Notes under the pieces: model-generated
What the model was told of the DNA's origin: nothing
Database searches by the model: none
The model's input: only the letters and a program-made list of their open reading frames with translations
Source: Ginglymostoma cirratum
Lineage: Eukaryota
Length of the DNA stretch: 64,000 nucleotides
Assembly: GCA_024137785.1 (NCBI GenBank)
Contig: JAHRHZ010000271.1
Location: 23,113,915-23,177,914, forward strand
Direction: 5' to 3'
Made by a program: the position numbers and the translations under genes
Shown here: piece by piece, positions 1,177-59,964 of the stretch
Numbering within the stretch: the stretch's first letter is position 1
Layout of the letters: every line of letters starts with the position of its first letter

Positions 1177-1254
1177 TAGGCCCGAAACGTCAAGTTTTCC
1201 TGCTCCTATGATGCTGCTTGACCTGCTGTGTTCATCCAGCCCCATGCTTGTTAA
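1177..1254 (+). mobile_element. Right arm of a Penelope-like hammerhead-bearing short element, cut by the gap
   Basis: TAGGCCCGAAACGTC...CCTGCTCCTATGATGCTGCTTGACCTGCTGTGTTCATCCAGC is near-identical to the arms at 39745-39825 and 48102-48190. Confidence 0.75.
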
Positions 1255-1933
1255 CCCAAAAAGTGGCCTCCTTTTCTCTCTCACTGACATTTGGACCACG
1301 ATGTGAAGTCTTGTCAATAACTTTGTCAGCCTGCTTCTTATCCTACTCTCATCACTCACCATTGTTGCCTTGAACATGGAAACAGAGATAGGCCACTCAG
1401 CCCTTGTGCATACTCTCCCATTCTAGGTCATGGCTGGTCATTTACCTCCATGGCTTTTTCTTGCACAATTCCCATTACCGTTGATCTCTGTCTTGTGTAG
1501 AAGTGTATTGACCTCAATTTGAACTTTACCAACAGACCAACAATCACTGCTTAGCTCTTCAGTTTCATTTAGAATAAATGATTATGCACAGTCTAGTACT
1601 TTGTCCTGTATATCCTTTTATTGTGGATGGCTTTGACTGAATCTTTAGTTCTTGCACTGTAACATCTTCCCACTTTTTGAGCAAAGCTTTTCCCTCGAAT
1701 TATATGCCATATTCTGTCTACCACTGTGAAAATGTGGGCCTTATCACCAACTCACAGCTTAGTTTTTCCTGTTAAACCTCAGAGAACCATTAACCTGCCA
1801 TTATTTATAAGCTCTTATTTTCAAGGGAATATGTTGCAAACCATACCTCTCCAACAATGAAAACTCATCTTTCAGTCATTTCTCTTCTATTATGAGCTCT
1901 GTATATGAAACTGAATTAAGTGCTGTAGCTACA

Positions 1934-2480
1934 AGAGCAGATCAGAGGCTAAAGTGGGAAACTCTCTTCCTGACTCCCCAAAACCTGTCCACCACCCCCA
2001 CTGTACAAGTCAGGAATGTGATGAAGTATTCTTCACTTGCCTGCATGAGTGCAGCTCCAACAACACTTGAAGCTTGAAACAACTGTCGTGATGGGCACCA
2101 TATTCACATTGACTGATGCAGAGTCGCAGCAGTGTGTACAATCTACAAGATGCACCACAAAAATTCTTCAACGTTCATTCAGCAGCATCTTTCAACCCCA
2201 TGACAACTATCATCTAGAAGGACAGGGGGCAGCAGATACATGGGAACACTACCAGCTGTATGTTCCTCTCTTGACCATCCTGACTTGGAAATATGTCACC
2301 GTTCTTTCACTGTCATGGGTCAAGGTCTTGGAACTTCCTCTGTAATGGCATTGTGGGTCAACCTACACCAAATGGACTAGAGAAGTTCAAGAAGACAGCT
2401 CACAATCGCTTTTCTCAAAGGCAACTAAGAATGGGAAATTAATGTTTGCGCAGCCAGTGACGGCCACATCCCCAAATAAT
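1934..2480 (+). mobile_element. 3' end of a CR1/L2-clade LINE (family 1)
   Basis: Homologous to the minus-strand copies at 19925, 23960, 36228 and 39890. Ends in GGCAACTAAGAATGGG...CAGCCAGTGACGGCCACATCCC. Confidence 0.7.
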
Positions 2481-5367
2481 TTTTTTTAAAAAATTGAGTT
2501 GCCAGTTCAAAGATGAATACAATGAAACACCTGCTTAATGTATTATTACCATTTCTTCCTCCTCGTTTCTGTTTTTGCTACTTTGTTTTTCTGCTTAGAG
2601 TGTAATATCTTGAGCTAGAACTCTCCTGTCATCTTTTGGATGATGCTTGCATTGTTTCTGTTGTCCCAAGCCCCACCCTAAATTTTTCATCAAGGTTTCC
2701 ATTTACCTTTTCCCCTTTCTGTCTCTGTGCTACATAGTCATTTTTACTCCATGTCAAACTTCATATTCACTCGCCATGTTGTCTCCAGCCTGCATAACTT
2801 GCTACAATGTCCAGAGTAGTCTCCTCCAAGGGGATCCAAGATCTTTGAATTTTTCTTCAGCTTGGACCTGTTCCCTTGAAGTGTCCGCCACCTTGTGGTT
2901 GATTCAGAATAATTGGTGTTAAAGGAATGCATGCTTAGTGAAGGATGTGCTATCAATAGGTAACCACGTGACTGTTTATAATGCTTTAATATGCATAATT
3001 TTCTAAGACTAAACATGATTTCAAATAACTGAAAACTTTACAGTATCATTTTTAAATATTAAATTTAATTTTTAAATTACGTTTTAAATTTAAACCTTAA
3101 AACTAATCTAAAGATCCTATTGAAAGGTGCCTATTTGACACTCCATGTTCATTAATTTAATCTGGAAACCTGTCAGGTTTGTGGGTGGGTCAGTTTCCAG
3201 CGCAATCATCTTTAATCAATTTGTGTAGCACCTAACCTTTGTTACTAATTCTTCAGTCTTCTGCGTGGCTTTGGCCAATTTTTGGGTGCTCTGCAAGTAA
3301 AGCCGCTGTCAGTAACACTATTCCCATGTCTGCAAGTTGATTCTTTGTCCTTCAGGCTCTCAATGTTATTTCATTCTCCTTACCTCCATACGATCATAAC
3401 AATGTTTCAAAATCTTTCTTCCCCATGTGAAAAGTTCCAACTCTATTTTAAAGAAGTGTCTGGATACTTCTCCTGGGCTTGGTGCTCATGTAATTTCCAG
3501 TCTCTTGTGGAAGTTACTAACTGCAGTGTGTATTCAGATGATAGTGCATAAACTGGACTTGGGGCATGTAATAAATGTAGCTTTCAATTATTTCAGCAGA
3601 AATCATCCTCTCTTCACACAATAGAGATTCCAACTACTTTTGTGATATTTATTGTTTAGAATTTAATTTCCAGACACGCATCTGGATAGATATCAAAGAA
3701 AAAAAAAATAACCATTTTGGTGATGCAATAATATTCACTTCGGTGCTAGCTTTGGTACAGCTGATGGAGTAGTGAGGCTTTCTGATTACCAGAGCACTCC
3801 ACCCAATAAACCCAGAACATTATAGAGAATTATTTTGTTACCCAGAAACCAATCAGCTTGCTTGTTTCCTCATAAGGGGTGGTGGGTTGCTTGTAGACAA
3901 ACACTTTTAGTGTGCAAACAAATGGTTCGCATTGGGAACGGATGGGTCAGTTCGAATCCATCAAAGACCCGTCCACCATCCATGGCCCCACCCCAGTCCC
4001 TTTCTCCTTTCTCCTGGAATCCAGTATCTATCCTAAGTTATGCCTTCAAGCGTCAGCAACAGCAGCTAGTGCTGTAGGTGATGCTGTCAGCAGTAGACAG
4101 CTGCCAGCCTTTGTTTGGCTGGATGCTCTCTGAGGCTGCTTCCTGGCCTTCTCCACCTTAATTATGCAGGAAGCCCCATGCTAGCTAGTGCCTGATAAAC
4201 ACTTAGGGGGACCTAAAATATTGGAACGAAATCCAGCCCTGGTAGCACAGCATTCTTTCTTGACCATTCTGCTAATTAAGTGTTCAGCTGAGAGAAGAAT
4301 ATTGCACTTTTCTAAGGTTTTTTTAATAAGTTATGAAACCATACAATGCACAATGTGCATTCTTAGTTTATTACAGCAAGAGGGCATTTAATTGGTTTAT
4401 TAATACCCTTAATTTACTGCGACAGTCAATAAAAAACAGGTACACATATAATAGGTGTACCTTATTATAATTACAGGGATTCATTCTCTGTTTATCAAAA
4501 GCTCACACGGAAGAATTTTTTTTTATTGCTGTATTACACTTTGTGATCTGATTCAAAGTATTACATCTGTGTACTCAGGAGAAATAAATAACATTTTTTA
4601 ATTCCGTGAATGAAGTACAATGCACCATTGTCCATACACACAAGTTGCCAATAGCAATGTTGACCATGCTTTATCTAATACCAGAAGTTGACTATGGTCT
4701 GCTTTCTCTTTGTTGTGAAATGCAAAATTTGTTTTGTTTCTCTCTTTCTCTTCTCTCCACTACCCCTGCTGTGAGCCTATTCTTTTTAATCATGTAGTGG
4801 ATGCTGAAGCATAATGGTAGTGATTCTAATTTTAGACCCATTTTGAAAAGTACTTTTCTCCCTGAAGTTGCCACTCATTCTGTAGTGACAAAATTAAAAT
4901 TGATCACATACAAACTGGAAATATATTAAAATGTTGATTCCCTTTCTTTTAAAAAAAAATTGGCATGAATGGTTGTGGCCAGATTTTCATTTGGTTAAAA
5001 CAGCAGTGATAATTAATTCATGTCTGAGTTTGAGAACAGCTTTGTGAGAAAGGCTTTGATTCCAGCACAGTGTTTTTAAAACTAGCACAAAAGATGGTAT
5101 GAGCTCAAATTGTGTTGTATGCAATTAGCACTTACAATTTCACAACATACTGTATCTATTATGGAGCGTTTGGTGAATTGCCTGATGTGGAAGCTTTGTT
5201 AACATGACATGGACTAAAGTGAAAGTCTACATGGGCCCAAGGGAGCATTTTCTGTCCCCCTCAATACAAGGAGATTGCTGGTGGTGAATTTAACCTGAGG
5301 GTCCTTCTCAAATAGGGCTCTCATGAATTAGAGACCAACTGGCCTGTACCTTTTTATGACCGCTGGA

Positions 5368-5402
5368 TGTGTGTGTGTGCGCACACATGTTTGAGAGAGA
5401 GA
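5368..5402. repeat. Short (TG)n/(GA)n microsatellite
   Basis: TGTGTGTGTGTGCGCACACATGTTTGAGAGAGAGA. Confidence 0.7.
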
Positions 5403-14140: not shown

Positions 14141-14149
14141 ATTATATGC

Positions 14150-15697: not shown

Positions 15698-15699
15698 TA

Positions 15700-17720
15700 G
15701 TTCATTTGGGTAATGAGTCTGCTTCACCATTCACGGTGATCACGGTGATCTGATCACACTCAACTCCACTCTGCTGTCTTTCTCCCATAACCCTCGATTC
15801 CCTGGGAAATCAGTCCATTTCAGTTTTATTATACTTTATGGTTCAACTTCGACAGTGCTTTACAGTAAAAAAAAACCACAGATTTGTGACACTGTAAGAG
15901 AAGAAATTTCTATCATCTCCACCGTAAGTGGGATATCCCTTACTCTGAGATCACGTGCTATGGTTAGAGAGTATCCCAATATAAATAATTTCTCCATATC
16001 TACATCAGGTGCCTTAATGATCTCGTATGTTTCCATACGTTTGCCTCTCATTATTCAAAATTCCAATGGGTACAGGCCCAGCCAACTCAATCTCTCCTCT
16101 TGAGATAAGCCTTTCATAGCTGGTATCAGCCTGATGAATCTTCTTAGGACTGCCTCCAATACAAGTATGCCTTCAGATAAGGGAACCAAAACTGTTCACA
16201 TTATTGCAGGTGTAGTCTGACTAGTCCTCTCTCCCCACCCCCTACTCAAGTGGGACTGTCTGTTGTTTCCAATATGCAATTAGACAAACCATTGTTCTGC
16301 CATTCTCATATTCTGATCACTTAATCTGAACTATCAACATCCTTTGGAGAGCATTCCACACTCCAACACCTCCCCCCTCCCCCCCACCACTGTAGCATAA
16401 ATGCTGCCCCCCTCCAAACTTCACTTTGAATCTAGATGACTCTTCATCAGAGCTAGTGTTAGCTTGCTCTCTCTCCATGGATGCTGCCTGTCCTGCTGTG
16501 ATCTCTAACATTTGTTTTCAGTACAGATTCCAGCAAGTACAGTAACTTGCTCCTATCTAGTCTGACCAATGTCTTATAAAGTTTTAACAAGTCTTCCCTA
16601 CTTTTCTGTTCCACTATCTGCTGAACTTGAATGCTAATATTTTGATTTATGCACAAGAGCCCCCAAATCCATTTGTTTTGCAGCTTTGTGCAGTCTTTCT
16701 CCATTTAAGTAACAGTTATCTCCTCTTCCTGCAAAAATGCATAACCTCACATTTTCACACGTTATATTCTATTTGCCAAATTTCTGTCCACTCATGTAAT
16801 CTATCTATATCCTCTGTATACACTGTTATCCTGATCAGTTGCCATTCCATCTATACATTGTATTATATCCCAGCTCTATCCCAGCTCTTTGGTATTTGAT
16901 CAGTTGACTAATCCGCCATCCGTGCTAAGATAATACACCTAATACTATGGGCACTTAAGTAGCCTAATGTGTGGTACCTTGTTGAAAGCCTTTCAGAAAT
17001 CCAGGTGTCTAATTGTTCCCTGTTACCTGTGCTGCTTGTCAACTCCTCAAAAAATTCTAATACAGTTGTGAGGTACGATTTTAACTTTGCAAGGCCATGC
17101 TGACTCTGCTTGAATATGTTATTTATTTCTAAATGCACTGCTATTACATCCTTTATCATAAACTCTAATGTTTTCCCAGTGACAGATGTTATGCTAACTG
17201 GTCTATAGTTGCTTTGTTTTTATCCCTCTTTTTGAGTAAGGTTGTTACATTAGCAGTTTTCCAATTGTCTAAGACTTTTTCAGAGTCTGAGATTCTTGGA
17301 AGATTACTGCCAGTGCCTATCTCAGCTTCTTTCTTTTGTATCCTAGAATCCAACTCATCGGGTTCAGGGTACCTAACAACCTTTCAGCTCCAGTAGTTTC
17401 CCAATTTAGTTCTTTAGTGATAGCTATTGTATTTATTTCCTTCCATTTGCCCCTTAATTTGGTATTTTTGGAATTCTATTGTTTTCTGTGAAGACTGTTG
17501 CAAAATATTGAACTCCTCTGTCATTTCCTGATTCCCTTTTTTTAAGAACCGATGTTTACTTTGACCCCTGACTTCATTTTATATATTTAAAGAGCTCTTA
17601 CCATCTAGTTTTACATCACTTGCTTCTTTACCCTCATAGTTGATTCTCTGACTTTATTTTCTTTTGATTGTCTTTTGTTGACTCTTAAAACTTTTTCAAT
17701 CAGTTGGTTTACCGCTAATC
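15700..17720 (-). mobile_element. Decayed CR1-type LINE (RT region to 3' tail)
   Basis: Minus ORFs IKDVIAVHLE..SQHGLAKLKSYLTTVLEFFEELT (CR1 RT motif SQHGF..KSCLTNLLEFFE) and LLKLYKTLVR. Many disablements. Confidence 0.85.
16222..16557. mobile_element. Penelope-like short element nested in a CR1 LINE
   Basis: TSD TAGTCTGAC at 16213-16221 and 16558-16566. The minus strand reads AGCT-CTGATGA-AGAGTCATCTAGATTC near 16428-16454. It has the family tail GATGCTGCCTG..CTGCTG...TTCCAGCA. Confidence 0.65.
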
Positions 17721-18286
17721 TTTTGTTTGCTATTTTAGAAGCTTGGAGACAGTGTGAAAAGCCAAACTGCTATCTTAAACTTTTAGTAATTTCCCATCTA
17801 CATATGTTTGCCTAGTTGGCCTATAATTCTCTGATCTCCCACTGTACCTGTTTTTAAATAGCAGTGGGAGGTGTGTGACCTTTCATCCTAAAGGAATGGC
17901 TCCCAAATCGAAGAAATTTTGCCCAATTTCCTAGCAAATTTTTCATCTGCTTCACAAAATCCCTCAGATGGAAACCATCTAGTCCTGTGATTTTTGTCAC
18001 ATCTTGAGCCTTTTTTTGCCATTGCTGTTGTAATAAGGAAAAAAGATTCCTTTGAAGAAAAAGCTGCACATTGTAGCATATTGAGATAAAACCAGCAAGT
18101 AGATACAGTGAGAAGAAATATTGAGAACTCTCAGTAAGTGAGCGAGCTTTTGGTGAGGGAGTTCTCAATGCAACATGAACAGTAAATAACAAAAAGATGT
18201 AATACCTTGTGTTAGCAATGAAAATCATTATATTGTCTGTACTTGTTTACTCTAATTCCTCTTCATTCTTTCTTTTGCATTTTTAG

Positions 18287-18992
18287 GTAAAATTGATTCT
18301 CCTAAAGTACAAGACAAAGGAAAATTGGCTCTCAAAGGAACAACATTACAAAGATCCTCATCTGATGCTAGCCGAGACAGAGTAGGAGAAACACGCAAAC
18401 CTCCATCAGGCATTTCAAGACCTTCTACTGGTGGATCTTTTGGTTACAAGAAGCCTACTACAGGCACAGCAACGGTGATGACTTCCGGTGGAAACACAGC
18501 ATCAGCAACAAAAACTCAGAAATCGACAGGCATCCCTGTGAAACCAACAAACTCCAGGAAAACCAGCCTTGATGTTTCCCAAAACCATGACGGCTTTATG
18601 TCATCAGGAGCGAGGACAGCCGTGCAATATCGTAGCTTACCACGTCCAGCCAAATCAAGTTCTGTTAGCATCACTGGCCGTGGAGGCGTAAATAGGCCTG
18701 TTAGTAGCAACATTGATCCGAGCCTCATTAGCAGCAAGCATGGAGGCATCCCAGTTTCTCGACTGAAAGAACCCTCAAAAATTGGTATGGGGCGAGCAAA
18801 TTCAGTACCAGTGAATCAAACTGATCGCGAGAAAGAGAAGGCAAAAGCAAAGGCAGTCGCTTCTGATTCTGAGTGCACAACTACATCAAGTTCTACAAAG
18901 GCCCCTTCAGCTCCAGAAAGTCACAGTAAGCCGCAAGGAATGCGGCAGCAAAGTTCCAAATTCTCAGAGATGTCTTCTCCAACAGCACAAAG
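18287..18992 (+). CDS. NAV1: NAV1 internal coding exon A (706 nt, phase 1 to phase 2), Ser/Thr/Lys-rich region
   Basis: Pyrimidine tract and TTTTAG acceptor end at 18286; donor is AG|GTAATC. Reads (G)KIDSPKVQDKGKLALKGTTLQRSSSDASRDR...KPPSGISRPSTGGSFGYKKP...QYRSLPRPAKSSS...PVNQTDREKEKAKAKAVA...SPTAQ(R). This matches recalled mammalian NAV1 (KGKLAVKNTGLQRSSSDAGRDR; PVNQTDREKEKAKAKAVA). Confidence 0.95.
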
Positions 18993-19924
18993 GTAATCTG
19001 CAGGGATATTTAGATTCATGTGCCTAGAATAAAAGATGTAGTCATGTATTTCCCATATTGCATGTGTTTACTTAGTGTATTTAAAATACTGAAGGATGAA
19101 CATAACTTCCAGTTACTTGAACCCAAATTGATTCTCATTGTTGTTCTTTGCATGGTTTCTAGTTTTATCTCTGATGGTACTTATCTTGTTCGCTCACTAC
19201 TGTCTAATTTCCAGGTCTTTCTCCAATCCCTTGCACCAGTTGACAGGCTGTCCTTCATTAGAAATGTTTTCCTGTATTTTCCAATTAACTCCATTTTGTA
19301 CTGCAGAAAAGGAGCAAAACCTCGTTGAAGGATCTGCTATGTGAACAACCAAGCCAATCGTTAGTTAATTGATGGTTATTTACTTGTATTGTACTTTCGT
19401 ACTATTGAAACATAGGCAGGGCAAACTGAAAATATCCTCATTTTTGCATTCATTCTTATTTAGTACAGGCAATGCAAGAAATCAAGTGCCAAAAAAAAAA
19501 TTCTGATGAGCTTTTCATCTTTCTTTCCCTAACACATCTACAGCAATGACCATTTGATGTTAATGGTATGACCAGATTTTTATATGCCTGATGTAATTGA
19601 CTACATATATTTTCTTCCATATAGCACTTTTAAAAATATTTCAGTTTGGTTAGATTTGAATAATGAGGGTATTTCTGACCCAATACTCTAGGCACTGCCA
19701 GCCCATAATAGTTAAATGAACAAAACAAGTAAAAACTCATCTCTTGTGGATCGGATTGTAGATGAGATGCGAACCATTGGTCGTTTAAGATTTATTTGTG
19801 ATTGTTCTGAATTGAGCATATTGTGGCCTTCTTCAACAGATACCTTTTAGTCCATGTGTAACACTGTTCTCCATTCCCAGGATGCAGATTTCCTCTGTGG
19901 GACCTTTTTGGAATTATATTTTCA

Positions 19925-22295: not shown

Positions 22296-22480
22296 ATCCT
22301 GTAGATACTGAAAATCTGAAGTAAGAGCAGCGATAGTTGGATATGCTCTGTAGTTATTACAGGATCTGTGCAGAGAGAAACAGCAAATGATTAAGATGGA
22401 TGATCTTGTTTTGGACATCTGAGTTAACTCTGTTTTTCTCTCCACAGATCTGCTTTTAATTTCTAGCATTTTTGGTCTTA
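22296..22480. mobile_element. Old fold-back Penelope-like remnant
   Basis: Inverted arms GATCTGTGCAGAGAGAAACAG and CTGTTTTTCTCTCCACAGATC, plus a degenerate family tail. Confidence 0.5.
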
Positions 22481-39373: not shown

Positions 39374-39660
39374 TTCTTCAAACTCAATGTTTAGAATTAG
39401 GGTAGGTCTTTGTTCCTAGATGCTGATTTTCTCTCACTCCAGCTTTCATGTCATCTCCCTTTCTGTTAACTCCATCACTTGTGGCATACATTTTTACTCC
39501 CGTCATTGCTACTCTCTGAAGCTCACTTGTCAAACGTGAATGATTCTTCCAAACCCAACCCTTTGACCAAATGTTTGCTCATTTAACTCCTTCCTGTCTC
39601 AGCATTTATCCTTCATATTCCCAAAGAAACATGCCATGGAACATAGTTTAGGTTCTGGTT

Positions 39661-39865
39661 CAAGGTGTAGAGCTGGATGAACACAGCAGGCCAAGCAGCA
39701 TCAGAGGAGCAGGAAAGCTGACGTTTCAGACCTGGGCCCTTCTTAAGGGTCCAGGCCCGAAACGTCAGCTTTCCTGCTCCTCTGATGCTGCTTAGCCTGC
39801 TGTGTTCATCCAGCTCTACACCTTGTTATCTCAGATTCTCCAGCATCTGCAGTTCCTACTATGTC
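39661..39865 (+). mobile_element. Fold-back Penelope-like element (about 81-bp inverted arms plus tail)
   Basis: Arms at 39661-39741 and 39745-39825, then the tail TTATCTCAGATTCTCCAGCATCTGCAGTTCCTACTATGTC. TSD TTA(G/A)GTTCTGGTT at 39648-39660 and 39866-39878. Confidence 0.85.
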
Positions 39866-39889
39866 TTAAGTTCTGGTTTGTACTCTTTT

Positions 39890-41252: not shown

Positions 41253-41331
41253 GAAGCAGATGCTGGAAGCTAGCGTCAATAAATGTGGAGCTGGAAAAGC
41301 ACAGCAGGTCAGACAGCATCCGAGGAGCAGG
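41253..41331 (-). mobile_element. Penelope-like tail fragment
   Basis: GCAGATGCTGGA...GCTGGAAAAGCACAGCAGGTCAGACAGCATCCGAGGAGCAGG matches the family arm. Confidence 0.6.
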
Positions 41332-43217
41332 ACCCTGACTAAGTGCAGTCATAAATAAACAGATATAGGGCCTTTCAGCTGACCTGCAAAGTCAAGCCTC
41401 TCAATCACTCTCTCGCTTATACGATTTTTTTTCTGTACTTTTTCTTTCCTTCAATTTTTTTTATAAGGATGTGGTATCCAGAACTGGATACCATATTCCA
41501 GTTGATCCCTAACCAACATAAATACTGTTACCACTAGCCCCTGGACAATGTTCCTTTTGTGTATTACTATTCCACATGGGATACTTCAAATTGTCCAGTG
41601 CCCAGGTAAAGGAGGATGAACTGTCTCCCCTAATTAACCTGCCATCTCGGTTGGTTGCAACAGTTTAAAGAGGATCCCTTCTCTTTGGAAACTTTTCTCT
41701 CAGACCAAATGTGCTGACTTCACTTGTTTCCACACGAGAGAGAGACATCCTTTTTACCTGCAGAGCAGGCATGATTTGCTGTGACCCTCACAGTACACAC
41801 CATTACCCACGAACATATATAGACCAGAGTCGGAACTGGCTTTTACTCCGTTTTTGTATATTCTTAAAGGGAAAGTGGTGTCCCTTGCCACGTGTCTATG
41901 ATCTGGAATTTAGCCCGCAGGATATGCATTCCTGCTGAGATGAGGGAACTGGTTTGCCTTGCACCCGCCTTGCACCTTTAACTTTTGAAGTCACATTCCT
42001 TTAAAACATCTTTTGCACTCTGCTAAGAGTGGCATTCCAGGTTTCCTCTTCAGATAACCACTGAATTTATTTTCTCAGTCGTCATTTTGGAAATTCAGTC
42101 ATCACTGTTAATAAAACTACTTTTTTTTTTGTCCGAGTTATTTAATTGAATTTCAGTTCCCCCAACTGCTATACTAGGCTTTCAACTCTGGTCTCCACAG
42201 CATTAGCACAGACCTTTGCATTAATAGTCCAGTAACATTATCAGGGGCAGTAGTATAGTGGTAAACACGTAATGCAAATCAACTGGTTGCTACATTGAAA
42301 ATGATGGCATTGAGTTCCATATGTGATAATTAGGTTTTTTTTTCCTTAGCAGCCAGATTCTAATTCATCTTTCAATCATGTGATTCTCATGATTTAGCCT
42401 TCTAGTTCAATTAAAATAAATTGAACTGAGTGATGGAGCAGGAAGAAGCTAACATGATGCTTTGCAGTATTTTTATACTGGATGACGTTCTGTTATCATT
42501 GATCGTGACTGATAATCCATAATTAATTTGAAATTCCATTTGTTCTTCAACATAGCAATCAGAAACAGCTTCTCTGTTAGCCTTATTTCACCAGAAGCCA
42601 GTACCAGGAGAAAGGGCTGCAAACGGTGCTAAACAAGAGAGTCCTAGCCTTCAGCTCAGGCTCCTCTCCCCCACTCTCACTGCCTCCATGTGTTCACAAG
42701 AATGTACTCTGCTCCAGTACGAAGTTCCAGGGATTGAGATGCGATTGTTCTGGAGCAAGCCCCTGGACAATTGGTTTGATTGACTACTTTTTTTTTAGAA
42801 AGATGTTTTGGATGATATAATCTGCCCTTTGCCATGCCCACCTCTGATTTGTAGATGTGTCCCTACAAGCAAAGTCATCAGTGGTGTTGGGAGGAGGTTG
42901 TGAAGGATGTGTGAGAGAGAAAGGCTATAAGAATTACCCGTTGGAGTTGGAGGCTGCAAGGGGTTTGTAGAAAAGGACGTTCTAAGAGGAATAGGGGGAA
43001 ATGGGAAAGCAACAAGGAAATGGAGGGTAGTGGAAGAGAGTAAAAGGATGGAAGGGATTTGAAGATAGGGAGAGCTGCAAAAGAAGGGGAAGAAAGACGT
43101 TTCAAGTAAGAACATTGTTGATTTTGTTGATAGGTGTACAACATTCAGCTAACTGGGAGCCAGGAATGCTTAAAATCACTGAGGTAATTAATTACTAGCA
43201 AATAATTCAGGAATTAT

Positions 43218-43567: not shown

Positions 43568-44681
43568 TCTTAACTTAAGCTTGCTTATGTTCAGGAACTA
43601 CTTTCAGGAGATGATGCAGTGAATGTTTTTGCATTGAATACTCTTGCATGTTGAATTTGAATTTCAATCTGAGATTTTGGACAAAGCAGTAATTGTCTGC
43701 TTTAAAATCTGCTGGGTTTGTGTAAATGTGATAGGAATACAATCTTGTGACCTCACTAGTTTGAGGAAGGTTTGTTTAGGGTGATGGTGCAAAAGTGTGC
43801 ATCAGTGAAATTTAAAAAGAAGTTTAATTGCTGACTTTTATATCTGTTGAATTTGTGTAAATTTAAATGCTGTAGTGTGTCGGAAAAGAGTACTTTGTGT
43901 GTTACGGCTTTAAATTTGAGGTTGACGATAAACATCCATCTTGAGATGTGTGGCTGCACATGTGTGCATCTGCTCTGATGTGCAGACACCGTGTGCTGAC
44001 ACCGATTGTAGCATTGATGTCTGGTTCTGGAGGTCACTGCCCCACATGCAACTTGGAGGTCCACATAGTTGAACAAAGTTTAGAGAGTATCCTGATAATG
44101 GTTTTTGAGGATATTGTTGAATTCTTCTCCTCCTGCTTTTGTGCAAGTCCAAATACTCTATACATGAAAACAAATAAGGTACCAATGGAAACAAAGAAGT
44201 AACACCCTGCAAAAAAAAATGTTGTGCCCTGTTGTAGAATCTAAAGTATTTTGCAATCCTATTATTTGCTCTATATTAGGCATTTTAAAATTATGTTTAG
44301 TTTTAATTTAAAATAAGAAACTACTTATTACTTAGTTGTAAAGTATATTTCTTTTTTCATTATCAAGCGTCACTTTTTTCTGGATTGAAATAGCATATTC
44401 TTGCAGGTGAATGCTTTGTTGCTAATTTACTGGAAGGTTTTTTGCCTTTTTAATCTTGGGAAGTGAAACTGGTCATCATACAATACAATACGTTGTTGTT
44501 TTCAAGATATTCTCATTTGGATGTGGAATTATTGTTTGTTGTGCTTATTGTGAGATATTGTTGCTGTTCAGTTATTGCATATGTCCAGGGTCAAAGGAAT
44601 GGCTGCATAATACGAATGACCAAGATGTGTGCAATTGTCTGTAAAAGCTGTGGTTGCGAAGCATGTCATAGTGAAACCTGA

Positions 44682-44805
44682 ACAAAAACAAAGTTGCTGG
44701 AAAAGCTCAGGAGGTCTGGCAGCATCTGTGGAGGAGAAAACAGAGTTAAAGTTTCAGGTCCGGTGACCCTTCCTCAGAGGGTAGTGACCAGTCATTTGAC
44801 CTGGG
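44682..44805 (-). mobile_element. Penelope-like short element of a second subfamily
   Basis: 13-bp TSD TAGTGAAACCTGA at 44669-44681 and 44806-44818. The minus strand reads CTGAGGA-A-GGGTC(ACCG)GACCT-GAAA-CTTT. Confidence 0.75.
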
Positions 44806-44929
44806 TAGTGAAACCTGAGCTTTTGATGGACTTTATAAATAGACACATACTCTAGAAAAGTCAAAAAGCTTTGTTAAATATATATGAACGGAAGTTGCTG
44901 TGGGAGTGATCAACAGGCTCCCTGACACT

Positions 44930-47284: not shown

Positions 47285-47973
47285 GTAAACTACCTCTTTG
47301 TGCGGTTTGTTTCAAATTCTAAATTCCAGACAAAGTTCCTGTATCACTACGTGTAACGACACAATACATAAACTGAATTTGAAACCTATTATTAACAATT
47401 TTGACTGATGTCTATTGGTTGGTATTGCCTGGATATCAGACACCCAGTTGAGCAATTAAAAAGGATTCCTTGGATCAAAAATCCGAACTTAGTTCTTTTA
47501 TTCTTCAATATTATGTCCTATGTGATTAAATAGACAGGTTACACCACAGTCCAAAAAGATTTTCAAAGCAAAATGATTGTCTCCTGTTTCAAATTACTTA
47601 AATAAGTCCCTGATAATCATACTTCAAAATCACATTACACGTCCTCTAATTTCCAGTAAGTAGGTGAACAGCACAGATCTCAGGTTTGACTCGCATTGTG
47701 TTGAGTCGGCTGTTCTCAGTTGAAGCAGCAATGAGGTCTCTACAGAGGAGAAAGTTTGTGAAAGACACGAGTAGGTCTTCAGCTTGATTTGTTACATTCG
47801 CTGAGGAGAAGACTGAGCAACAGTACTGGGTCTTGGTAACCGTGCTCATGTACCTGTCCCCTAAACTTCAGGAGGGGTGAGCATTAAAAATAAAACCATG
47901 TCAATCCCACAATTTCATGTCTATCTACAGATAGGAAAGAAGACTGAAATGGCCGGCACACCCTCTTTGCATC

Positions 47974-48189
47974 CGACATAGTAGGAACTGCAGATGCTGG
48001 AGAATCTGAGATAACAAGGTGTAGAGCTGGATGAACACAGCAGGCCAAGCAGCATCAGAGGAGCAGGAAAGCTGACATTTCGGGTCTAGACCCTTCTTCA
48101 GAAGAAGGATCTAGGCCCGAAACATCAGCTTTCCTGCTCCTATGATGCTGTTTGGTCTGTTGTGTTCATCCAGCTCTAGACCTTGTTAT
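47974..48189 (-). mobile_element. Fold-back Penelope-like element, reverse-oriented sibling of 39661-39865
   Basis: 13-bp TSD CCCTCTTTGCATC at 47961-47973 and 48190-48202. Inverted arms surround ~48101. The minus strand at 48074-48101 reads CTGAAGA-A-GGGTC(TA)GACCC-GAAA-TGTC. Confidence 0.85.
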
Positions 48190-48623
48190 CCCTCTTTGCA
48201 TCTGTTTAGTTTTAAGTGAATCCGAACTGGCACAAGCAAAGGAGCTTTCAGTCATTATTTCACAAACTAAGCAAGTCCATTGATAAAATTGTTGTGTGCT
48301 GCAGTGTGGACCTCACATTGTCCATTACCATCTCATATAACATAATGTTAATGCATTTTTTTTTCGTATTTCTTAACAAGTTATCTCCAAATTCCTTCAT
48401 ATTTATCCAGCCTCATTTTGTCTGAATTGAAAGTTACAAAGTGGATGAACTTCAGCTAAATTCCTAAACAATTTATCATGAGATAATTCTTTTTGGATAA
48501 TTTCTCAATTAAAAGCTTGAAGACTTGGAAAGCATGAATAAGATGACTAGTCGTATAACTTGCACTTTGAATTTTCCCTATTGCAATTTTTTATAATGCT
48601 CTTGCTGCAAAATATTTTGAATA

Positions 48624-49485: not shown

Positions 49486-50998
49486 CTCTTAAAACATGAA
49501 CAGGTGTATTAATTTCACTGGAACTCATCAATAAAAGGAATTGCAAGTGAAACTTTCCTACGGTAAAACAAATAGTATCACATTGGCTTCAAATTACACA
49601 ACTTGCCTGATATGTTCTGTTGACTTTTGATGTTGGGGAATATCTGTAGCAGAATGAGTAGTCCCCATAAAGAAGATTAACTTCAGAATGGAATTTAGTT
49701 ATTAGTTCATGTAGCTATTTTGCTAGGTTTATCAGAGATAATTCTAAGTTTACAAATTAGTCCTCATATGAAAATAGCATTGCTAATGTGTTAGTTGGAT
49801 GGAATTGCTGACATGAAACTACAATCAACTGTACCGATATTAGTATAACTTCCTGAATAGAAGAAACTATTTCATTCCCACTGTTTATATGCAAAGCAAT
49901 TTGGCAGGGATAGATGATTATTTTGAAGACACGTTGAGAAGCTTAGGACTGTAATGGTCAAATGGTCTTAGATGTATAATCAAGCGCAGTGAATGCATCT
50001 TCATATCTCATGTATTATCTACTATTTTTCTGGTTTCATGTACTGCTCAAAACTTAACTGCCCATCTCCATTCACTGGAATTTAACATCTCTTCCCACAG
50101 GTTCTGCCTGGCTTGCTGAATATTTCTAAGATTTTTTTGTTTTTATTTGTGAATTGCAGATAACTTGGGGGTAGTACTAGTAGCAACAATAGCCACTACT
50201 GTCTATACTTAATGCTTCTTATATACTGTAATGGATTGGGCCTAATTATTTTAGCATTTGATTCAACACCAGATCTAAGTGTTCCTAGCATTGATTTCGT
50301 TCTCCACATCTCATTATAGGTTAAAACAATACAAGTGTACAAGTTTTGCTTTTGCCAATATGTTAGAAAGTACTTTATTTAATTTGTGGACTGTTTGTTT
50401 TTACTTGCTCTGCTTGGGCATAGTAGATACTGAGCACAGCACAGGGGAAACAAATATTGAAGTTAGTCCATTCTCATAACTGAGATCTAATAAAGAAGCA
50501 CTTGTATTCTGTGCAGCTCAGCGATAGCCAAAATAATAGATATTTGCCTTCTAAGCAGAAAGCTAGGAGTTTGACATCTTTCTTCTGTGTTGGTTCTGAA
50601 ACGAGAGCAATATATTGACAGTTTTCTACTTCCTGTCTGGTTTAACTATGTTGTTTTTCTTCCAATCAGAAAGGTGTTAATTTTGGAGAAGCTAGAAAAG
50701 TTTGGAACTCTGTATACGATAGCGTAGGGGTCGGCAAACAACCAAAAAGAGGTCGCTCAAAAGTATGTGTCTGTTTGACTCAGAGTTCCCCATGTTACAT
50801 AGCAAAGATCACACTGTTCTATTATTAATGCCATTTAAAATGATCTTGTCTCAAGCTCGTTAGAGGTAGCAAACGTTTTGAAATTGTGATCTGAAACATT
50901 AATATATGCTTTTACTCCATTAACTTCCACATTCTTAGCTTGGTTTACACATTTGTCAAGATCTAACTCATTTGTACATGGCCTCCCCTCATTTATAG

Positions 50999-51120
50999 AT
51001 ATGGAACAAGTTCACAACAGGAAGACAAGGAATGGCTCCATGGACGTTCTATTGGAGGTCCTGTAGACTCGGATAGCCAGTCACTCTCATCCCCATCAGC
51101 TGTTCCGTTATCAAACTTGG
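50999..51120 (+). CDS. NAV1: NAV1 exon D (122 nt), (R)YGTSSQQEDKEWLHGRSIGGPVDSDSQSLSSPSAVPLSNL
   Basis: Acceptor is CCTCCCCTCATTTATAG; donor is G|GTCAGT. The frame is open, phase 2 to phase 1. It aligns by eye to the navigator segment following KKGLR. Confidence 0.88.
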
Positions 51121-51605
51121 GTCAGTACATTTTTGATTACCAAATAATTTGTAGAAAAAACTGCATTTTGGATTTCCTTTTTTCCCAATCAATTTGTTTA
51201 GCTATTTTGGTAACTGACATTTTCTGCCTTGCAGCAGATGAGTATAGAATGTAATAAAAATAGCAAGTTTTACTTATTGATGACATCCATATGAAAATAA
51301 CATGGGAAAATTGTGTTGGGATAGAAAAGAAACTAAAATATAGATTGGCAGAGCAGGCTTGAGGTGAGGGGTTGCCTACTCCTGCCCCTAGCTTACTGTG
51401 CCTCTGTTTGGGATATGTCTTAAAGACATATAAATTGACTAACTGTGCAACTTAAATATCAGATGGTAAAATTTCTGATTGATGACATTTCCACACAAGT
51501 ATCTGACATGGTGCCATATTTTTGATTGATTAGAATTTCAATTCTCTGAATTTCATAACTAAATCCACGTGGTATAATCCTGGTACAAAACACAATCTCT
51601 TTATT

Positions 51606-51732
51606 CAGTTCTGTAGAAGAGTCAAATAAGATCAAAATATTTAGTCTGTTTTGGTCTCCACAGATGCTGCCAGATCTGCTGAGTTTCTCCAGCATTCTGT
51701 TTATTTCAGATTTCCAATATCCACAGTACTTT
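51606..51732 (+). mobile_element. Degenerate Penelope-like element (similar remnants near 20528-20592, 50085-50150, 52055-52160, 52756-52872 and 59870-59945)
   Basis: Decayed core AGTTCTGTAGAAGAGTC, followed by CCACAGATGCTGCCAGATCTGCTGAGTTTCTCCAGCA...TTTCAGATTTCCA. Confidence 0.55.
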
Positions 51733-52259
51733 ACTGTAATATGACTGTCAGTTAATTTTATTTGCACGATTATTGCACTTTGCAAACAGTAGGAAGCAGC
51801 GATCAATAAGATTATTGCTGAAACAACTGCTGAAAATTTACAGAGCAGGATCTCAGGAATCCCCATGGTTTCCTGAGGGTTAAAAGCTCACCACCTTTTA
51901 CTCAAGTTAGCCAAAAAAAAAGCTGTGTTTTCAGTGCTTTCAACTGTCTCTCATAGGAGGGGTTTCAGTACGAATGTCCCTTTCCTAATTATAGAAATGA
52001 AAAATGCCATATGTAAAAGTATCTTTTCAGAATTTGAGAATTGAGCTTATTAATACAAGCAGAAAATGCTGGAAATACTCAGCAGGTTACACAGTATACT
52101 GACTTGCTGAGCATTTCCAGCAAGCTGTGTTTGTGTTTTAGATTTCAAGCAGCTGAAGTTTTCTACCTTAAAGAATATTTTGTTTTTAAAAGGGGGAAAA
52201 AATTTACAACCTCAGTACAAATGTAAACAACAAATAACTTTTTTATGATTAACTTTTCT

Positions 52260-53285
52260 TGGATAATGGCGTAGAAAGTCATATCTAAATTTGCTTATGA
52301 CACAAAAATAAGTGGCATTATAGACAGTGCCATTGATGGCATAAAAACTGTGGCAGATGGAGTTCAGTGTAAGCAAGTGCAAAGTTATCCATTTTGGACC
52401 AACAACAGATGGGTCAGGCTATTTTCTGGATGATAAGAATTTAAATTCAGTGGATGTGCAAAGAGATTTGGGAGTTCAGGTACATAGATTTTTGTGTTAA
52501 TTTAAACAGGTGCAGAAAATAATCAAGAGAAAATTAGTGGAATGCTTGCCTTTATACCTAGAGGACTGGAGGATGCAGAAGTTATGCTGCAGTTATACAA
52601 AACCGTGGTTAGATCCCCTTGGAGTATGGCGAGCAGATCTAGGCACTAAAACTTGGGAAGGATATATTGGTCTTGGAGGTTGTACAACATTGGTTTACAA
52701 GACTAATACGTGGACTTCAGGGTCTAAGTTATGAGGAGAGATTTGAGCAAATTGTGTTCAAAGAAGAGTTACTGGACTAAAAAAGTTAACTCTGCTTTCT
52801 CTAGACAGATGCTGCTTGACTTGATGAGCTTTTTCCAGCAATTTCTGTTTTTGTTTCTGACTTCCAGCATCCATAGTTAATTTCTACAGTTTAAAAAAAA
52901 TGCCTGTTTTCTGCATAATTTAGAAGACCTGAGGGGTAATTGAAATCTTCAAGATATTAACAGGAAAAGAAGAGATGGATAACTATTTTCACTGATTGGG
53001 GATTCTGGAACAAGGGGACATAGTCAGTGAGTTAGGGCCAACTGTTCAGGAGAGATGTTAGGAAGCACTTCTACACACCAAAGGATGGTAGATGTTTTGA
53101 ACTCTTCTACAAGCCCATGGCAGTGGATGGTAGATCAGTTGTTAATTTTAAAGCTGTGATTTTTGTTTTGTTAAGCGACAGTATTAAAGGATGTGGGCCA
53201 GAGGCAGGTATATTGAATTAGGTCTCATTGAATGGTGGAGCAGGCTTAAGGGCTGAATGGCCTAATCCTGTTCCTATGTTCCTAT
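52260..53285 (+). mobile_element. CR1-type LINE 3' end
   Basis: SKFAYDTK (decayed KFADDTK) near 52285, and a 3' tail GAATGGCCTAATCCTGTTCCTATGTTCCTAT. Interrupted by a Penelope-like remnant near 52756-52872. Confidence 0.8.
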
Positions 53286-54206: not shown

Positions 54207-54613
54207 GTGACTGGCAACGTAGCTTGGATGTAAGACCCTAAAAAGTCTTAAGCTCGTTAAAGCCTGAATTCTTCTAAGATGGATGAGGATACAATCATAC
54301 AATTTTATAAACGTTGCTTGCTGTATTTTTAACAAAGCTCTTTACTTAAATCTGCTATAGTTTACTTATAGTTTTTTTTCGTCTTTGTATATACCTTAAG
54401 AACCTGTTATGAAACTAGTTTTGTGTTAATATTTATTGTTCATTCGCCGGTTTGTTAGCATGTAACTATCAAACAAATATTAAAGCAGGTTTACTGACAG
54501 TGACAATAGAATTTGAAGTTGCGTAATTGTCACTCTTAAAAACAACAAAAACACAAATAATGTTAAAGAAATATCTGGTCCAGTTAACCAAATGAGATTC
54601 AGGTTAATAAGCA

Positions 54614-55144
54614 GAAAAACAAGAGGCTAGAAGAACACAGCAAGCCAGGCAGCAGCTGGAGGAAAGGAGAAATCAACGTTTTGGGTATTGTCCTTCATAA
54701 GGACTGGATGTGGGCGTACTGGGAACGGCAGATAAAAGTGGGGGATGTGGCAGGGGGGAAAGAGGGTAGTGGAATGGTGGTAATAGGTGGACACCGCTAG
54801 TAGGTATGACCTGGCTCATCGACAACCAGGTTGTACCCACTACCAGTGTCCATCGATCACCATAATTCCACTATCCTCCCTCCCCTCTCTCTTTATCTGC
54901 AGCTTCAAGAAGTCAACGTTTTGGGTATTACCCTTCTTCAGGTCTGGACGTGGGGGTACTTTCCCCCCTGCCACATCTCCCACTTTTATCTGCCGTTCCC
55001 AGTACGCCCACATCCAGTCCTTATGAAGGACAATACCCAAAACGTTGATTTCTCCTTTCCTCCAGCTGCTGCCTGGCTTGCTGTGTTCTTCCAGTCTCCT
55101 GTTTGTCTATCTTGGTTCCAGCATCTGCAGTTTTTTTTGTCTCA
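54614..55144. mobile_element. Large nested fold-back Penelope-like element
   Basis: 17-bp TSD ATTCAGGTTAATAAGCA at 54597-54613 and 55145-55161. Outer inverted arms at ~54618-54762 and ~54959-55104, an inner hairpin at ~54762-54888, and three decayed hammerhead-like cores. Confidence 0.85.
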
Positions 55145-55287
55145 ATTCAGGTTAATAAGCAACCTTGCTCAAGTGCAAAACACAATACTAAGTATTTTTC
55201 TTTTCTCTCACAACAAATCCACCTGAAGACTTGTTCTTACTTTGCAATGAGCTGTTTAAATGAATGTAATTGTTGCTTTATCAACAG

Positions 55288-55473
55288 CAAGTCCCACAGG
55301 AGTGTCCCAACTGGGTAGCCCAACTCCAAAAATGATGCGCTCAAACAGCATTCCAACTCACGACTCCTCATTTGATTTGTATGGAAGTTTGCAGATGGGA
55401 AGCACAGTTTCTTTGGCAGAAAGACCAAAAGGAATGATCCGCTCTGGATCGTTTAGGGATCCAGTGGATGAAG
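55288..55473 (+). CDS. NAV1: NAV1 exon E (186 nt, phase 1 to phase 1)
   Basis: Acceptor CAACAG ends at 55287; donor is G|GTAAGA. Encodes SPT...MRSNSIPTHDSSFDLYGSLQMGSTVSLAERPKGMIRSGSFRDPVDE. LAERPKGMIRSGSFRDP is NAV1-like. Confidence 0.95.
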
Positions 55474-56450: not shown

Positions 56451-56785
56451 TAATTGGTAGAGACAGCAGTTATTGAATTTCTGGAATCTTAGCTCTTAGC
56501 AGACCTGAATGACACAGCACAGTTCCACTCACTTAACAGCCCATTCAAAAGCCTCTTATCAGTTCCAGTTATCTTCAGCCTTTTCCAGCACTGCAGTGGA
56601 AGAACTTCTCCTATTTGGTCAATCTTGGCCTACAAAGTAACTCAGCAGTGGAAATGGCTACTTAGAAAAAATCAGAATCACCTTTCTTCAGTGATCTCCT
56701 ACCCCTCCAGTGGGGTTGACCTGACTAACCCGAGTACCTTTAGACTCCACAGGCCTGCTAGTGAAAGCAGAAGTCCATGAATATG

Positions 56786-56948
56786 CTGGAGGAACACAGC
56801 AGGCCAGGCAGTACGAGGAACAGGAAAGCTGACATTTCAGGTCGGGACCTTTCTTCAGATGTTCCTCTGATGCTGCCTGGCCTGCTGTGTTCCTCCAGCT
56901 CCACACTTTGTTATCTCTGACTCCAGCATCTGCAGTTCTTGCTATCTC
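56786..56948. mobile_element. Partial fold-back Penelope-like element
   Basis: 14-bp TSD AGTCCATGAATATG at 56772-56785 and 56949-56962. The minus strand at 56831-56858 reads CTGAAGA-A-AGGTC(CC)GACCT-GAAA-TGTC. Confidence 0.8.
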
Positions 56949-58845
56949 AGTCCATGAATATGTTGTCTTTGTCTAACTGGTGCTTTCTGAAGTACAGCTG
57001 AATTTCCAGCTCTCTGACTGGGTTGTTGGCTCTTCGGAGACGCCTGTTACCTTTAATGGGATGGCAGGCCTGGCCACAATGACTAAATTGACCTCCACTC
57101 AATAAAATGTAGCATAGGCCTGATCGGAAATGGGGCAGTCTCCTGTTTCCACCCTAGCGACATCATCATCAGTGTTAACTTAGAAAAATGTTTTAATCCC
57201 AACAAAAGTACTAACATTTGACTGTTGCTCTAAAAAATGTGCAAACTAGTTGACCAAGAACATCGCGTTGAAGAAGGAATTGTTGCTGTTTAAAGTAGCC
57301 TGGATATCAAGGTGTTGATAGAAATCCTATTTTTGATGGATGTTTAGAATTGCATGTCTCCTAAAGAGTAATTCTATTAGTTTTGGCCCAGATGACAGTA
57401 ACACAGATTGAGTGAGTCCCTTGTAGTCGCACACTGCCTTGTCTCAGCAGGTAGATTGTACCTCTCGCTGCATGTTCATATAAAGAAGATCTGTATACCA
57501 TTAGCATAGATGGGTTTCCTTGTACAAGTTGGCAGTAGAAAATGTATTTTAAGAAAGGAAACAATAATTCTGTACTGGAGCACGCAGGTTCTATTTAATT
57601 GAAGTAGTGACTGTGCTCCAGACCTTGAGCATGTCTTATCTTTTTTTTGTGGAAACAACAAAAGAGCCATATCAATATTATGACCCAAGAATTCCTCACG
57701 GTAAAAGCACAGTTGGAACACTATCCAAGCAGGGGAGGTAGTTGTTTTGTTTTAACAGGAGTTATTTTCTTTCTTTTCCATTTCATACCTTGTTTAATGT
57801 TTTGTGCAGCACAATTTTTATTAAATTTCCGCTCGTGTCTCAGCACTTACTTCGTTATTTGCTTCTTTGTGTTCTCTTCTTTCTTTTACCTGGCTCCAAC
57901 TCAAAAGAGCTGCCTTTACATAGTTGTCTGGAACTTTTTCCGATAATTAATGTGAAATGTTCACTTGTCTGTTTTTAGTACATCTGTTTCCTAGTTTGAG
58001 TTTCCCACTACAGCATTCCAGCCAAACATCCCACTGGGAAAATGACCACACACTACCCTGATCAGATAACAGCAAGATTGTGTGTCTACCTTGGGGGTAC
58101 AATTAACATTATCAGCAAATGCTATTTATATGCGAGCTTTTAAATTATTCTTTCGCAGCTTTTTTTTTTCAGTACCCTGCAGATTTCTGTACTATTCATA
58201 AGAACCAGATGGAGATCTCAGTGGAGGTGCTTTAGTGCCAATAAACTGCAAAGGACTTTTTAGCAAAGACACGAGCTGTTGTCTGAGGCTAAAAATATTT
58301 GCTTAGTCACTGCCCAGCTGTATTGTAACTTGTATAGGGAGCACAAATAATCATGCGAGGCCCCCCACATACGCTGCTTACAGAGCCTAGATGTTAGCTG
58401 TTTTCTGTCAGTCTCATTGCTCTGCTTTTCGTTTGTTGACTGGTCATCAAAATATCTGAGCCAGATAGTTGTCATAGCAGCGCAGACTAAAATTATGCTT
58501 CAGGACTATATAAAAATCCCAATGACTGAGAATATTGACCAGGAATTTAAAAATTCTGATTGGCAATTATTTTGCATCTTAAAGCCTGAGATTTTAGGCA
58601 ATTCTGATTTGCTTAAGTTTAATAGTTACCCAGGAAAGGTTAGAGGATTAAAGACCTACTCTAACTCTTGAATAACTATAATACTGAACTCTCCCTCCAC
58701 TACAATCCTTGATTCTGACAGACCTGATGCCCATTCTGTACCCAACACATGGTTTTCCCCCGATACAGGCTTCATGGCTACCCCACCCTTCCCCTTTGCC
58801 TGGCCCCTCAATGTGCCCTAAATGTTCATCTACCTGCCCCCTCCA

Positions 58846-58927
58846 ACACACACACACAATTTCACGTGCGCACGCGCACGCACATGCACGTGCACGCACG
58901 CACACACACGCACACACATGCACACAT
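58846..58927. repeat. (CA)n/(CG)-rich alternating purine-pyrimidine microsatellite
   Basis: Unbroken Y-R alternation from 58863 to 58927. Confidence 0.9.
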
Positions 58928-59596
58928 TCTCTGTCTCACCTGGCACCCTATCCCTCTCACATTCACCTTGTCACAGCAATTGTCAAATAGCTGGATGTGC
59001 TGCTGGACATATAAATCACAGAATTAAAGCCTGCCTTGTCTACTGCAAAAGGGGCTTGTGGTATCTATGATGCTCCTATCTCCTGCTGTCTGTCAGGTTT
59101 CCTGTGCTGGTGTCCAATGTTTTGTAACAAGAGGCTCCTATCCAGTACGGAGAGAGTAGTTGTCACCTAAATGTACCTGTGTATTCTCATTTGGCCAAGG
59201 TCCGAAATAGGATTTCTGGCAGTGATTGGAATTTCTGGGCTGTTATTAGCGCACTACCTCTCTTTGTGTGGACTCTTTTTTTATTTTCAGTGTCAGCCCT
59301 GAGTGTTTAAAAGTACCTCTTGTTTAAAAATTGCTGCGGTCCCTACATCCTCAAGTTGTTGCTCTCTCAGCAGCTCTCCAGTCACAGCAGCGCCACCACC
59401 TGAAGTGGTGCCCACTGCTAGAACTGCACCCTGCTGTGACCAGCAAGATGGAGGTGACCCCAGAACCCAGGCAACAAAAATCAGGCTGTACAGGCAGATA
59501 CTGAAGATGGGTGCAGGTTGGCCAACAGAAGTGAGCAACAGGATGCCCTATCAGCAGGACAATCCACCCACCCCCATAACACCAGTCTGCAAGGAA

Positions 59597-59825
59597 TGTA
59601 GTGATTGAGGTCAGCCAGGTGGACCTCCTAGAATGAGTTCCCTGATTGGAGCTGCTGATCTGGTTCAATCAGGGAGCCCTGGCTGACAGGTAAGAACAGG
59701 AGTATCAGAGATTCTGTTCACGCTGAGAGCTGGCTTTGAGGGAGCTGGATCAGTATCAAGGGCTCTCCATGTGTAGGTAAAGGGTGAGTTGGTGACAGGA
59801 TGCTGGGGTCTGTGGTGTTATTTCA
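59597..59825 (+). mobile_element. Probable solo LTR (229 bp)
   Basis: TGTAGTGA...TTATTTCA gives TG..CA termini, flanked by AGGAA and AGGAG. Internal inverted CCCTGATTGG / TCAATCAGGG. Confidence 0.55.
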
Positions 59826-59964
59826 AGGAGGCTGCCACTTTTATTAAACAATGTCCTTTTGTGGAAGAATGTTCTACCTTCCCCAGATCTGCTGAATATT
59901 TCGTGTAATTTGTTTTTGTTTCTGATTTCCAGTATCTGCAGTTCTTTAGTTTGTCATTACGAAG

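Follow-up and report, generated by a model that had tools for sequence, protein, structure and literature searches.

Insertions in the NAV1 introns

The window analysed here is a 64,000-nucleotide stretch of the genome of the shark Ginglymostoma cirratum (contig JAHRHZ010000271.1, positions 23,113,915 to 23,177,914). It holds five exons of the plus-strand gene NAV1, the largest of which is 93% identical to NAV1 of Heterodontus and 83% identical to that of Callorhinchus. A first, sequence-only reading had described a dense family of short, hammerhead-bearing retro-insertions in the introns of this gene, and with the exons mapped all of the elements are indeed intronic. As judged from their sequence, the insertions are the end modules, or pseudo-long terminal repeats (pLTRs), of at least four families of Penelope-like elements (PLEs).

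Family sequence was recovered at 16 of the 16 listed sites by repeat finding, self-BLAST and alignment to the family ends. The weakest sites (20528, 22296, 41253 and 59870) score 41-79, compared with a shuffled maximum of 35, and a hidden Markov model gave 20 matches in the window and none on the reversed window and sample blocks. Three further fragments (23182, 50088 and 52060) were added. The lengths of the eight target-site duplications (TSDs) first read at 16222, 35515, 37299, 39661, 44682, 47974, 54614 and 56786 (9, 17, 11, 13, 13, 13, 17 and 14 bp) were reproduced as perfect cores, save for one mismatch in the 13 nt at 39661. In the list below, positions with a sign are element positions counted from the C of CUGANGA as 0.

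18286-18993, 34179 to about 34615, 47241 to about 47290, 50976-51122 and 55287-55472, plus strand: NAV1 exons
1177-1257, plus: family A2 pLTR stump, about +13 to +90, its 5' part masked by an N gap
16222-16555, plus: family D copy, about 200 nt of PLE 3' untranslated region (UTR), then pLTR with tail; TSD 16211-16221 / 16556-16566
20527-20590, plus: old C-like stump, +65 to +120, without core
22296-22486: decayed head-to-head pair (minus arm 22299-22383, plus arm 22424-22486), without intact core
23182-23221, plus: family A tail fragment, newly added
35515-35747: family D head-to-head pair, arms beginning at -4/-8, only the plus arm tailed; intact core at 35616 (plus); 17-bp TSD 35498-35514 / 35748-35764
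37299-37397, plus: family A1 solo stump, -3 to +92, without tail; intact core 37302-37329; 11-bp TSD 37288-37298 / 37398-37408
38371-38486, minus: old C-like stump, core decayed
39661-39865: family A1 head-to-head pair, only the plus arm tailed, cores broken at the axis; 13-bp TSD 39648-39660 / 39866-39878
41253-41332, minus: family A-like stump, +34 to +120, without core
44682-44805, minus: family C stump, -1 to +97, CUGAGGA core with GAAACUUU, about 25 extra nt; 13-bp TSD 44669-44681 / 44806-44818
47974-48189: family A1 head-to-head pair, both arms beginning at -2, only the minus arm tailed; intact core at 48101 (minus); 13-bp TSD 47961-47973 / 48190-48202
50088-50158, plus: old C-like fragment, newly added
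51605-51732, plus: old C-like stump, -6 to +123, tailed, core decayed
52060-52160: small decayed head-to-head pair, newly added
52756-52884, plus: family C stump, -3 to +124, core decayed
54614-55144: family B insertion of four segments (minus, plus, minus, plus), tail on the last arm only; 17-bp TSD 54597-54613 / 55145-55161
56786-56948: family A1 head-to-head pair, only the plus arm tailed; intact core at 56858 (minus); 14-bp TSD 56772-56785 / 56949-56962
59883-59958, plus: old C-like stump, +58 to +134, without core

To place the window in its genomic context, insertions were counted in a random sample of 458,480 bases (12 readable blocks out of 25 placed arbitrarily, 1,000,000 bases in all; possibly biased). 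The supposed density proved ordinary: 18 insertions in 63.6 kb correspond to 283/Mb, compared with 218/Mb in the random blocks and inside their range, and a NAV1-specific enrichment was therefore rejected. The sample contains 100 insertions that cover 7.9% of its bases; 84 of them are at most 300 bp long and 73 are single arms. A crude extrapolation to the 4.36-Gb genome gives about 0.95 million insertions. The insertions are ordinary PLE debris, yet at about 8% of the sampled DNA they make up a major component of the genome.

The CUGANGA...GAAA core ascribed to the best-preserved copies is intact in four arms only, 35616 and 37302 on the plus strand and 48101 and 56858 on the minus strand; it is entirely absent at several sites (20528, 41253 and 59870), and the other arms are decayed. 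A minimal-hammerhead descriptor found four matches in the window and none in each of 60 resampled windows. An Rfam covariance scan of the window returned no hammerhead at E ≤ 5 and only weak microRNA-hairpin matches, which is unsurprising because the motifs lack helix III. Across five subfamilies, the commonest base is shared at 10 of 11 core positions compared with 9 of 33 other positions, a higher conservation of the core over its flanks that is supportive but inexact, as the downstream columns were not gap-aligned and the seeds had been picked for intact cores. The differing core position is G12, which decays as a CpG in family B, and a downstream ATGCTGC motif is likewise shared across subfamilies. 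Covariation between families is seen in stems I and II, with 89.6% of cells paired and 20 double changes (0 of 500 shuffles; rows hand-picked, relatedness uncontrolled). The CpG sites of the motif are decaying in individual copies, as dead insertions would be expected to show, and we infer that the hammerhead would ride along uncut and decay neutrally after insertion. The two intact cores at 35616 and 37302 lie in the sense orientation of NAV1, and no sign of a function for them in this gene was found.

Several details of individual insertions stand apart. In the family D copy at 16222-16555, the 30-nt hammerhead core (16425-16454) is inverted in place while the rest is colinear, and the breakpoints of this inversion lie at the AGCT arms of stem I. 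The outer arms of the family B insertion (54613-54762 and 54959-55108) are 97% identical to each other and only about 72-79% identical to four further copies of family B, and they have changes in common that are absent from the inner segment 54908-54956; this likeness suggests inter-arm conversion or two templates. The same insertion, the largest fold-back of the window, stops some 140 nt before the NAV1 exon at 55287, and a long hairpin could arise from it in the NAV1 pre-mRNA. A second, unrelated dispersed repeat family (1925-2481, 19933-21058, 24436-25129 and 36231-36431) probably represents 3' fragments of a long interspersed nuclear element.

Coding parents and copy architecture

For all four families of the window, genomic copies were identified in which coding sequence for a GIY-YIG endonuclease (EN), usually together with reverse transcriptase (RT), stops roughly 260-300 nt short of the same end. 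The end of the 54614 element, for instance, leads to loci whose shared sequence continues upstream into RT and GIY-YIG coding. These parents bear out the proposal that the insertions are what remains of the ends of a highly active shark Penelope lineage, and the subfamilies are real. The protein search of the genome gave 126,388 first-look candidates, of which 128 were scored. In the parent loci, an open reading frame (ORF) is followed by a pyrimidine-rich 3' UTR and then by the module seen in the window. Family D has EN coding at the expected place in 9 of 14 other loci; in family C the upstream ORF is clear in loci L216 and L202, the 29 other loci being mostly short. Two of six fetched loci carry open, N-free ORFs of 1,037 and 1,053 aa, each followed by 3' UTR and module, so that long copies reaching an RT and GIY-YIG ORF do exist elsewhere in the genome. 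Within the window, a six-frame reading by eye found no PLE ORF of 75 aa or more, in agreement with the earlier reading.

The parent ORFs bear DKG and YIDD motifs, a CNRRKCYTC linker and a GIY-YIG-type motif. Pfam GIY-YIG matched a parent ORF above its cut-off (E 6e-5, 23.7 bits versus 22.6), and RVT_1 fell just under its own (E 1e-6, 28.9 bits versus 29.6). One of four parent proteins matched no Pfam family, and three partial ORFs gave one weak GIY-YIG match. The nearest relatives of the parent proteins are unnamed proteins of Chiloscyllium, Rhincodon and Stegostoma. The parents almost certainly belong to the EN-bearing (EN+) PLEs, and the linker, as a CX2-5CxxC marker, points to the Neptune/Nematis type.

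Beyond its tail, the module continues into an ORF whose ATG lies at about +166. It stands both behind the 3' UTR and before the ORF start and therefore qualifies as a pLTR; 3' UTR lies upstream in 5 of 25 ORF-start loci, which are partial tandems. At least 12 copies of the 281-nt ORF-start region are identical, which means that family A2 was active in the recent past. The ORF of this family (L224-L246) contains a variable-length tandem repeat rich in Thr, Ala, Asp and Pro before the RT, which brings ORFs to more than 1,000 aa. In locus L054, the end of the ORF and the 3' UTR are connected by a long internal run of A, which may record a further jump onto a poly(A) tail. Fragments at L021:1951-2562 and L023:571-1020 resemble another PLE lineage with a different protein sequence, to which a CUGAUGA...GAAA motif on the minus strand of the window (57146-57172) may belong.

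In the random sample, a TSD score of at least 9 was reached by 31 of 89 insertions, compared with 0.7% of shuffled flank pairs, with lengths of 9-16 bp. The 3' ends of family A are bimodal, at about +94 (no tail) and about +127 (tail). Among 27 head-to-head pairs, 24 have one tail, three have none and none has two (p 2e-5), and 17 of 112 sampled arms extend past -300 into the ORF. The same one-tailed pair arrangement has been described before (PMC3846280, PMC8557442), and in a lizard PLE the tail pattern was tied to two internal RT start sites, with internal starts, tail and uncut RNA as template seen in vitro (PMC11167929). The fold-back shape of some copies would also suit a miniature inverted-repeat DNA transposon whose inverted arms are terminal repeats. 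Such an origin is scarcely credible and was rejected: the TSDs vary from 9 to 17 bp where a DNA transposon would have a fixed length, 73 of 100 insertions are single arms, paired arms are unequal in length and carry one tail, and the parents encode RT. A tandem retrozyme was likewise rejected, as no head-to-tail hammerhead units occur in the window.

A fixed 5' end, an extra G and composite copies

To distinguish fixed from random 5' breakpoints, as the sequence-only reading had advised, the 5' ends of 112 arms were placed on the module (11 of 123 arms were dropped for a nearby N). Ends at -6 to 0 account for 37 arms, and the rest are scattered save for the 17 that enter the ORF. The density is 5.3 ends per nt at -6 to 0, compared with 0.07-0.12 per nt at -100 to -11, and in family C alone 24 of 52 arms begin in this interval. 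The breakpoint is thus sharp and fixed, although it does not by itself separate the alternatives, as ORF-bearing copies share it: 9 of 25 ORF-start copies also begin at -6 to -2 (two of the nine adjoin an N gap). In a comparison of 90 columns with 19-51 copies per family, no column differed at p < 0.02 between short and long copies (26 versus 25 in A2, 13 versus 6 in A1, 33 versus 9 in C), a comparison of limited power. The shared boundary and the lack of a short/long difference indicate that the boundary belongs to the PLE and does not define a small element of its own.

These observations bear directly on the other half of the earlier proposal, a non-autonomous element like a short interspersed element (SINE) or retrozyme, whose internal promoter would yield short capped RNAs that the PLE protein re-inserts. 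The shortness of the insertions, 84 of 100 being at most 300 bp, and the family C pile-up agree with it; short capped RNAs would produce an identical start and also the G described below, Drosophila Penelope has an internal promoter (PMC2377424), and pLTR-derived retrozymes have been reported (bioRxiv 10.64898/2026.07.22.740005). The lack of any diagnostic column, the lack of tandem arrays in the window and the 17 of 112 arms that run into the ORF tell against it, as does, by analogy, the lizard PLE, which requires RNA downstream of its RT starts (the first 172 nt of the ORF) that the stumps lack. This half of the proposal was not upheld, and we consider such an element improbable. A fixed 5' end alone is no ground for naming stumps SINEs or retrozymes.

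The boundary reads CCATTTC, CCAGTCC, TCAGTTC or TCAGCTC in the four families. Common to all is an A at -4, which opens stem I and forms part of an initiator-like site that precedes the ORF start by about 170 nt; the sequences resemble the initiator consensus YYANWYY. An internal, initiator-type promoter is known from Drosophila Penelope (PMC2377424). As ORF-bearing copies share it, the fixed breakpoint more probably corresponds to the 5' terminus of the RNA made from the PLE itself. The ribozyme cut site (+28) was considered as a source of 5' ends and rejected, as only a broad bump lies at +21 to +30 (10 of 112 arms), with one exact case (L240).

Further evidence comes from the base that precedes the start. 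Among exact genome-wide matches of the young subfamily A2 in which the ATTT-core is preceded by a non-C base, a G that is not part of the element is present in 1,424 of 2,489 (57%, compared with 26% expected). In the first 100 matches listed, counted by hand, G:A is 64:28 at the start and 24:76 at a control position inside the core. None of 18 examined G loci has 3' UTR upstream, and therefore the G does not mark a variant subfamily. Of eight G loci with a TSD, taken from the ATTT-core and CATTT-core sets together, six have the G outside the duplication. For L1 and SVA, an untemplated G of this kind has been taken as the copied cap (PMC4859970).

Composite copies point the same way. In 11 of 25 ORF-start loci, a pLTR with 460-1,660 nt of 5' sequence is joined to a second module, so that a variable ORF position meets a module starting at -3 to -6; a twelfth composite joins at -13 through longer homology. 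An extra G is present at seven of the 11 junctions (after 5-7 A in two of the seven), and four junctions show 1-3 nt of microhomology. Several composites are flanked by TSDs of 9-16 bp and therefore arose as single insertions. That the junctions lie at -3 to -6, away from the cut site, speaks against circles made by the ribozyme as template. Because cDNA synthesis proceeds from the 3' side, these joints are most simply read as the RT running off at the cap and then jumping to the end of a broken or polyadenylated RNA. At the junctions of L227, L229, L230 and L233, four T rather than three follow the start A, perhaps owing to slippage at the transcription start or at RT run-off.

Taken together, the observations suggest the following route. 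Transcription would start at the A of the CCATTTC/CCAGTCC/TCAGTTC motif, which is also the first base of stem I. RT would prime at the nicked target, begin at an internal point, about 100 or 130 nt short of the capped 5' end of the RNA, and run off that end, with the extra G as the copied cap. The run-off product would yield stumps of 100-130 nt; a jump to another RNA end would give composite and tandem copies, and priming at the downstream module of a read-through RNA would produce long, randomly truncated copies. Priming of both nicked strands, with a different start site used on each, would result in head-to-head pairs that carry a single tail. The explanation as a whole, that the insertions are PLE end modules derived from an RT start near the capped 5' end and run-off, is given a probability of about 0.7. 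Cap run-off and jumping as a mechanism is rated somewhat to fairly probable on the pattern of ends and joints in genomic DNA. The specific target-primed strong-stop route, in which transcription starts at the first base of stem I and the RT sets out about 100-130 nt inside the capped end, copies the cap and either integrates the stump or jumps to the 3' end or poly(A) of another RNA, stands at slightly better than even odds.

A rival history would be that ordinary 5'-truncated PLE copies are primed only downstream, the pile-up reflecting an RT stall at the hammerhead and the G a non-templated addition. In its favour, the breakpoint falls on the 5' arm of stem I, this stem and stem II covary between families, PLE copies are as a rule heavily truncated at the 5' end (PMC8557442), and no RNA 5' end was observed in poly(A) reads. 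However, G is in excess at the -4 start and not at the control position (64:28 versus 24:76), the monomers are weakly folded, and an RT heading 5' should stall on entering the structure, not on leaving it. A stall is accordingly considered unlikely.

Several results weigh against the capped-start model itself. The G lies inside the TSD in two of the eight G loci with a TSD, and in about 3-4 of 18 G loci the inverted arm could have served as its template; before the CATTT-core, T is commonest and not G (14 T, 12 G and 4 A in 30 loci); outside jump junctions, only four of nine copies in a small hand-checked set carry G; and the G test is limited to one young subfamily. In that subfamily most exact copies, 17,966 of them, continue into the 3' UTR, and run-off would therefore be a minority route there. 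The jump junctions were drawn from loci selected for an ORF start. When six monomers were folded, stem II formed and the core mispaired into a non-hammerhead, non-catalytic structure, with z-scores that are not significant. Poly(A) RNA reads contain the element and show no pile-up at the start, in a run that looked unstranded, and 89% of the element-bearing reads continued into other sequence. A second raw RNA run gave only 10 reads. Joints with an extra G in 50 + 5 RNA reads were not counted as independent, as they probably stem from transcribed genomic composites.

Comparison with known systems

The elements themselves are of a known PLE kind, and what is added here is the 5' pile-up at stem I, the extra G and the jump joints. 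The open literature searched yielded no report of this shark family, of cap copying by PLEs or of PLE jumps (the supplements of PMC11167929 and PMC4209133 may bear on this). The junctions matter more than the elements, and thousands of young identical copies offer data for the capped-start model. If true, one mechanism would account for the masses of solo hammerheads in animal genomes and for the regeneration of pLTRs and tandems.

The parents resemble the Neptune/Nematis EN+ PLEs (PMC8557442) in having a single ORF with RT and C-terminal GIY-YIG, a DKG motif, a CX2-5CxxC linker, a hammerhead pLTR, heavy 5' truncation, an adjacent inverted copy and a 30-40 bp tail at one end. Unlike those elements, the shark copies have clear TSDs in ordinary AT-rich DNA (no microsatellite targeting was noticed, a point not formally tested), number about a million insertions, mostly below 300 bp, and show a sharp 5' start with a G. 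PAc, a Poseidon PLE of Anolis carolinensis (PMC11167929), likewise has a hammerhead where pLTR and ORF meet, two end sites separated by the length of the tail, inserted copies that keep an uncut ribozyme, and priming of both strands. The PAc ORF begins in stem II, whereas the long shark ORF begins about 166 nt downstream of the core; a multi-copy mRNA is proposed for PAc, in contrast to the run-off at the cap and jumps modelled here.

The shark motif shares with the minimal hammerheads of metazoan PLEs (PMC4209133) the CUGANGA, an extra base, G10.1-C11.1, the GAAA, a palindromic CG in place of helix III, a short stem I, and single or opposite-strand motifs, and differs from them in a stem II of 4-5 bp. 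Non-LTR retrozymes (bioRxiv 10.64898/2026.07.22.740005) are similarly non-coding and pLTR-related, with a type I hammerhead; they form head-to-tail tandems, whereas the shark stumps are solo or head-to-head, have TSDs and match coding parents. With the cap copying described for L1 and SVA (PMC4859970), the shark copies share the extra G.

The proposed PLE route has a further counterpart in a different class of element. In retroviral minus-strand strong-stop transfer, synthesis also initiates near the RNA 5' end, runs off and jumps. In contrast to the retroviral reaction, the shark route would be target-primed and not tRNA-primed, and the stopped product itself would be integrated.

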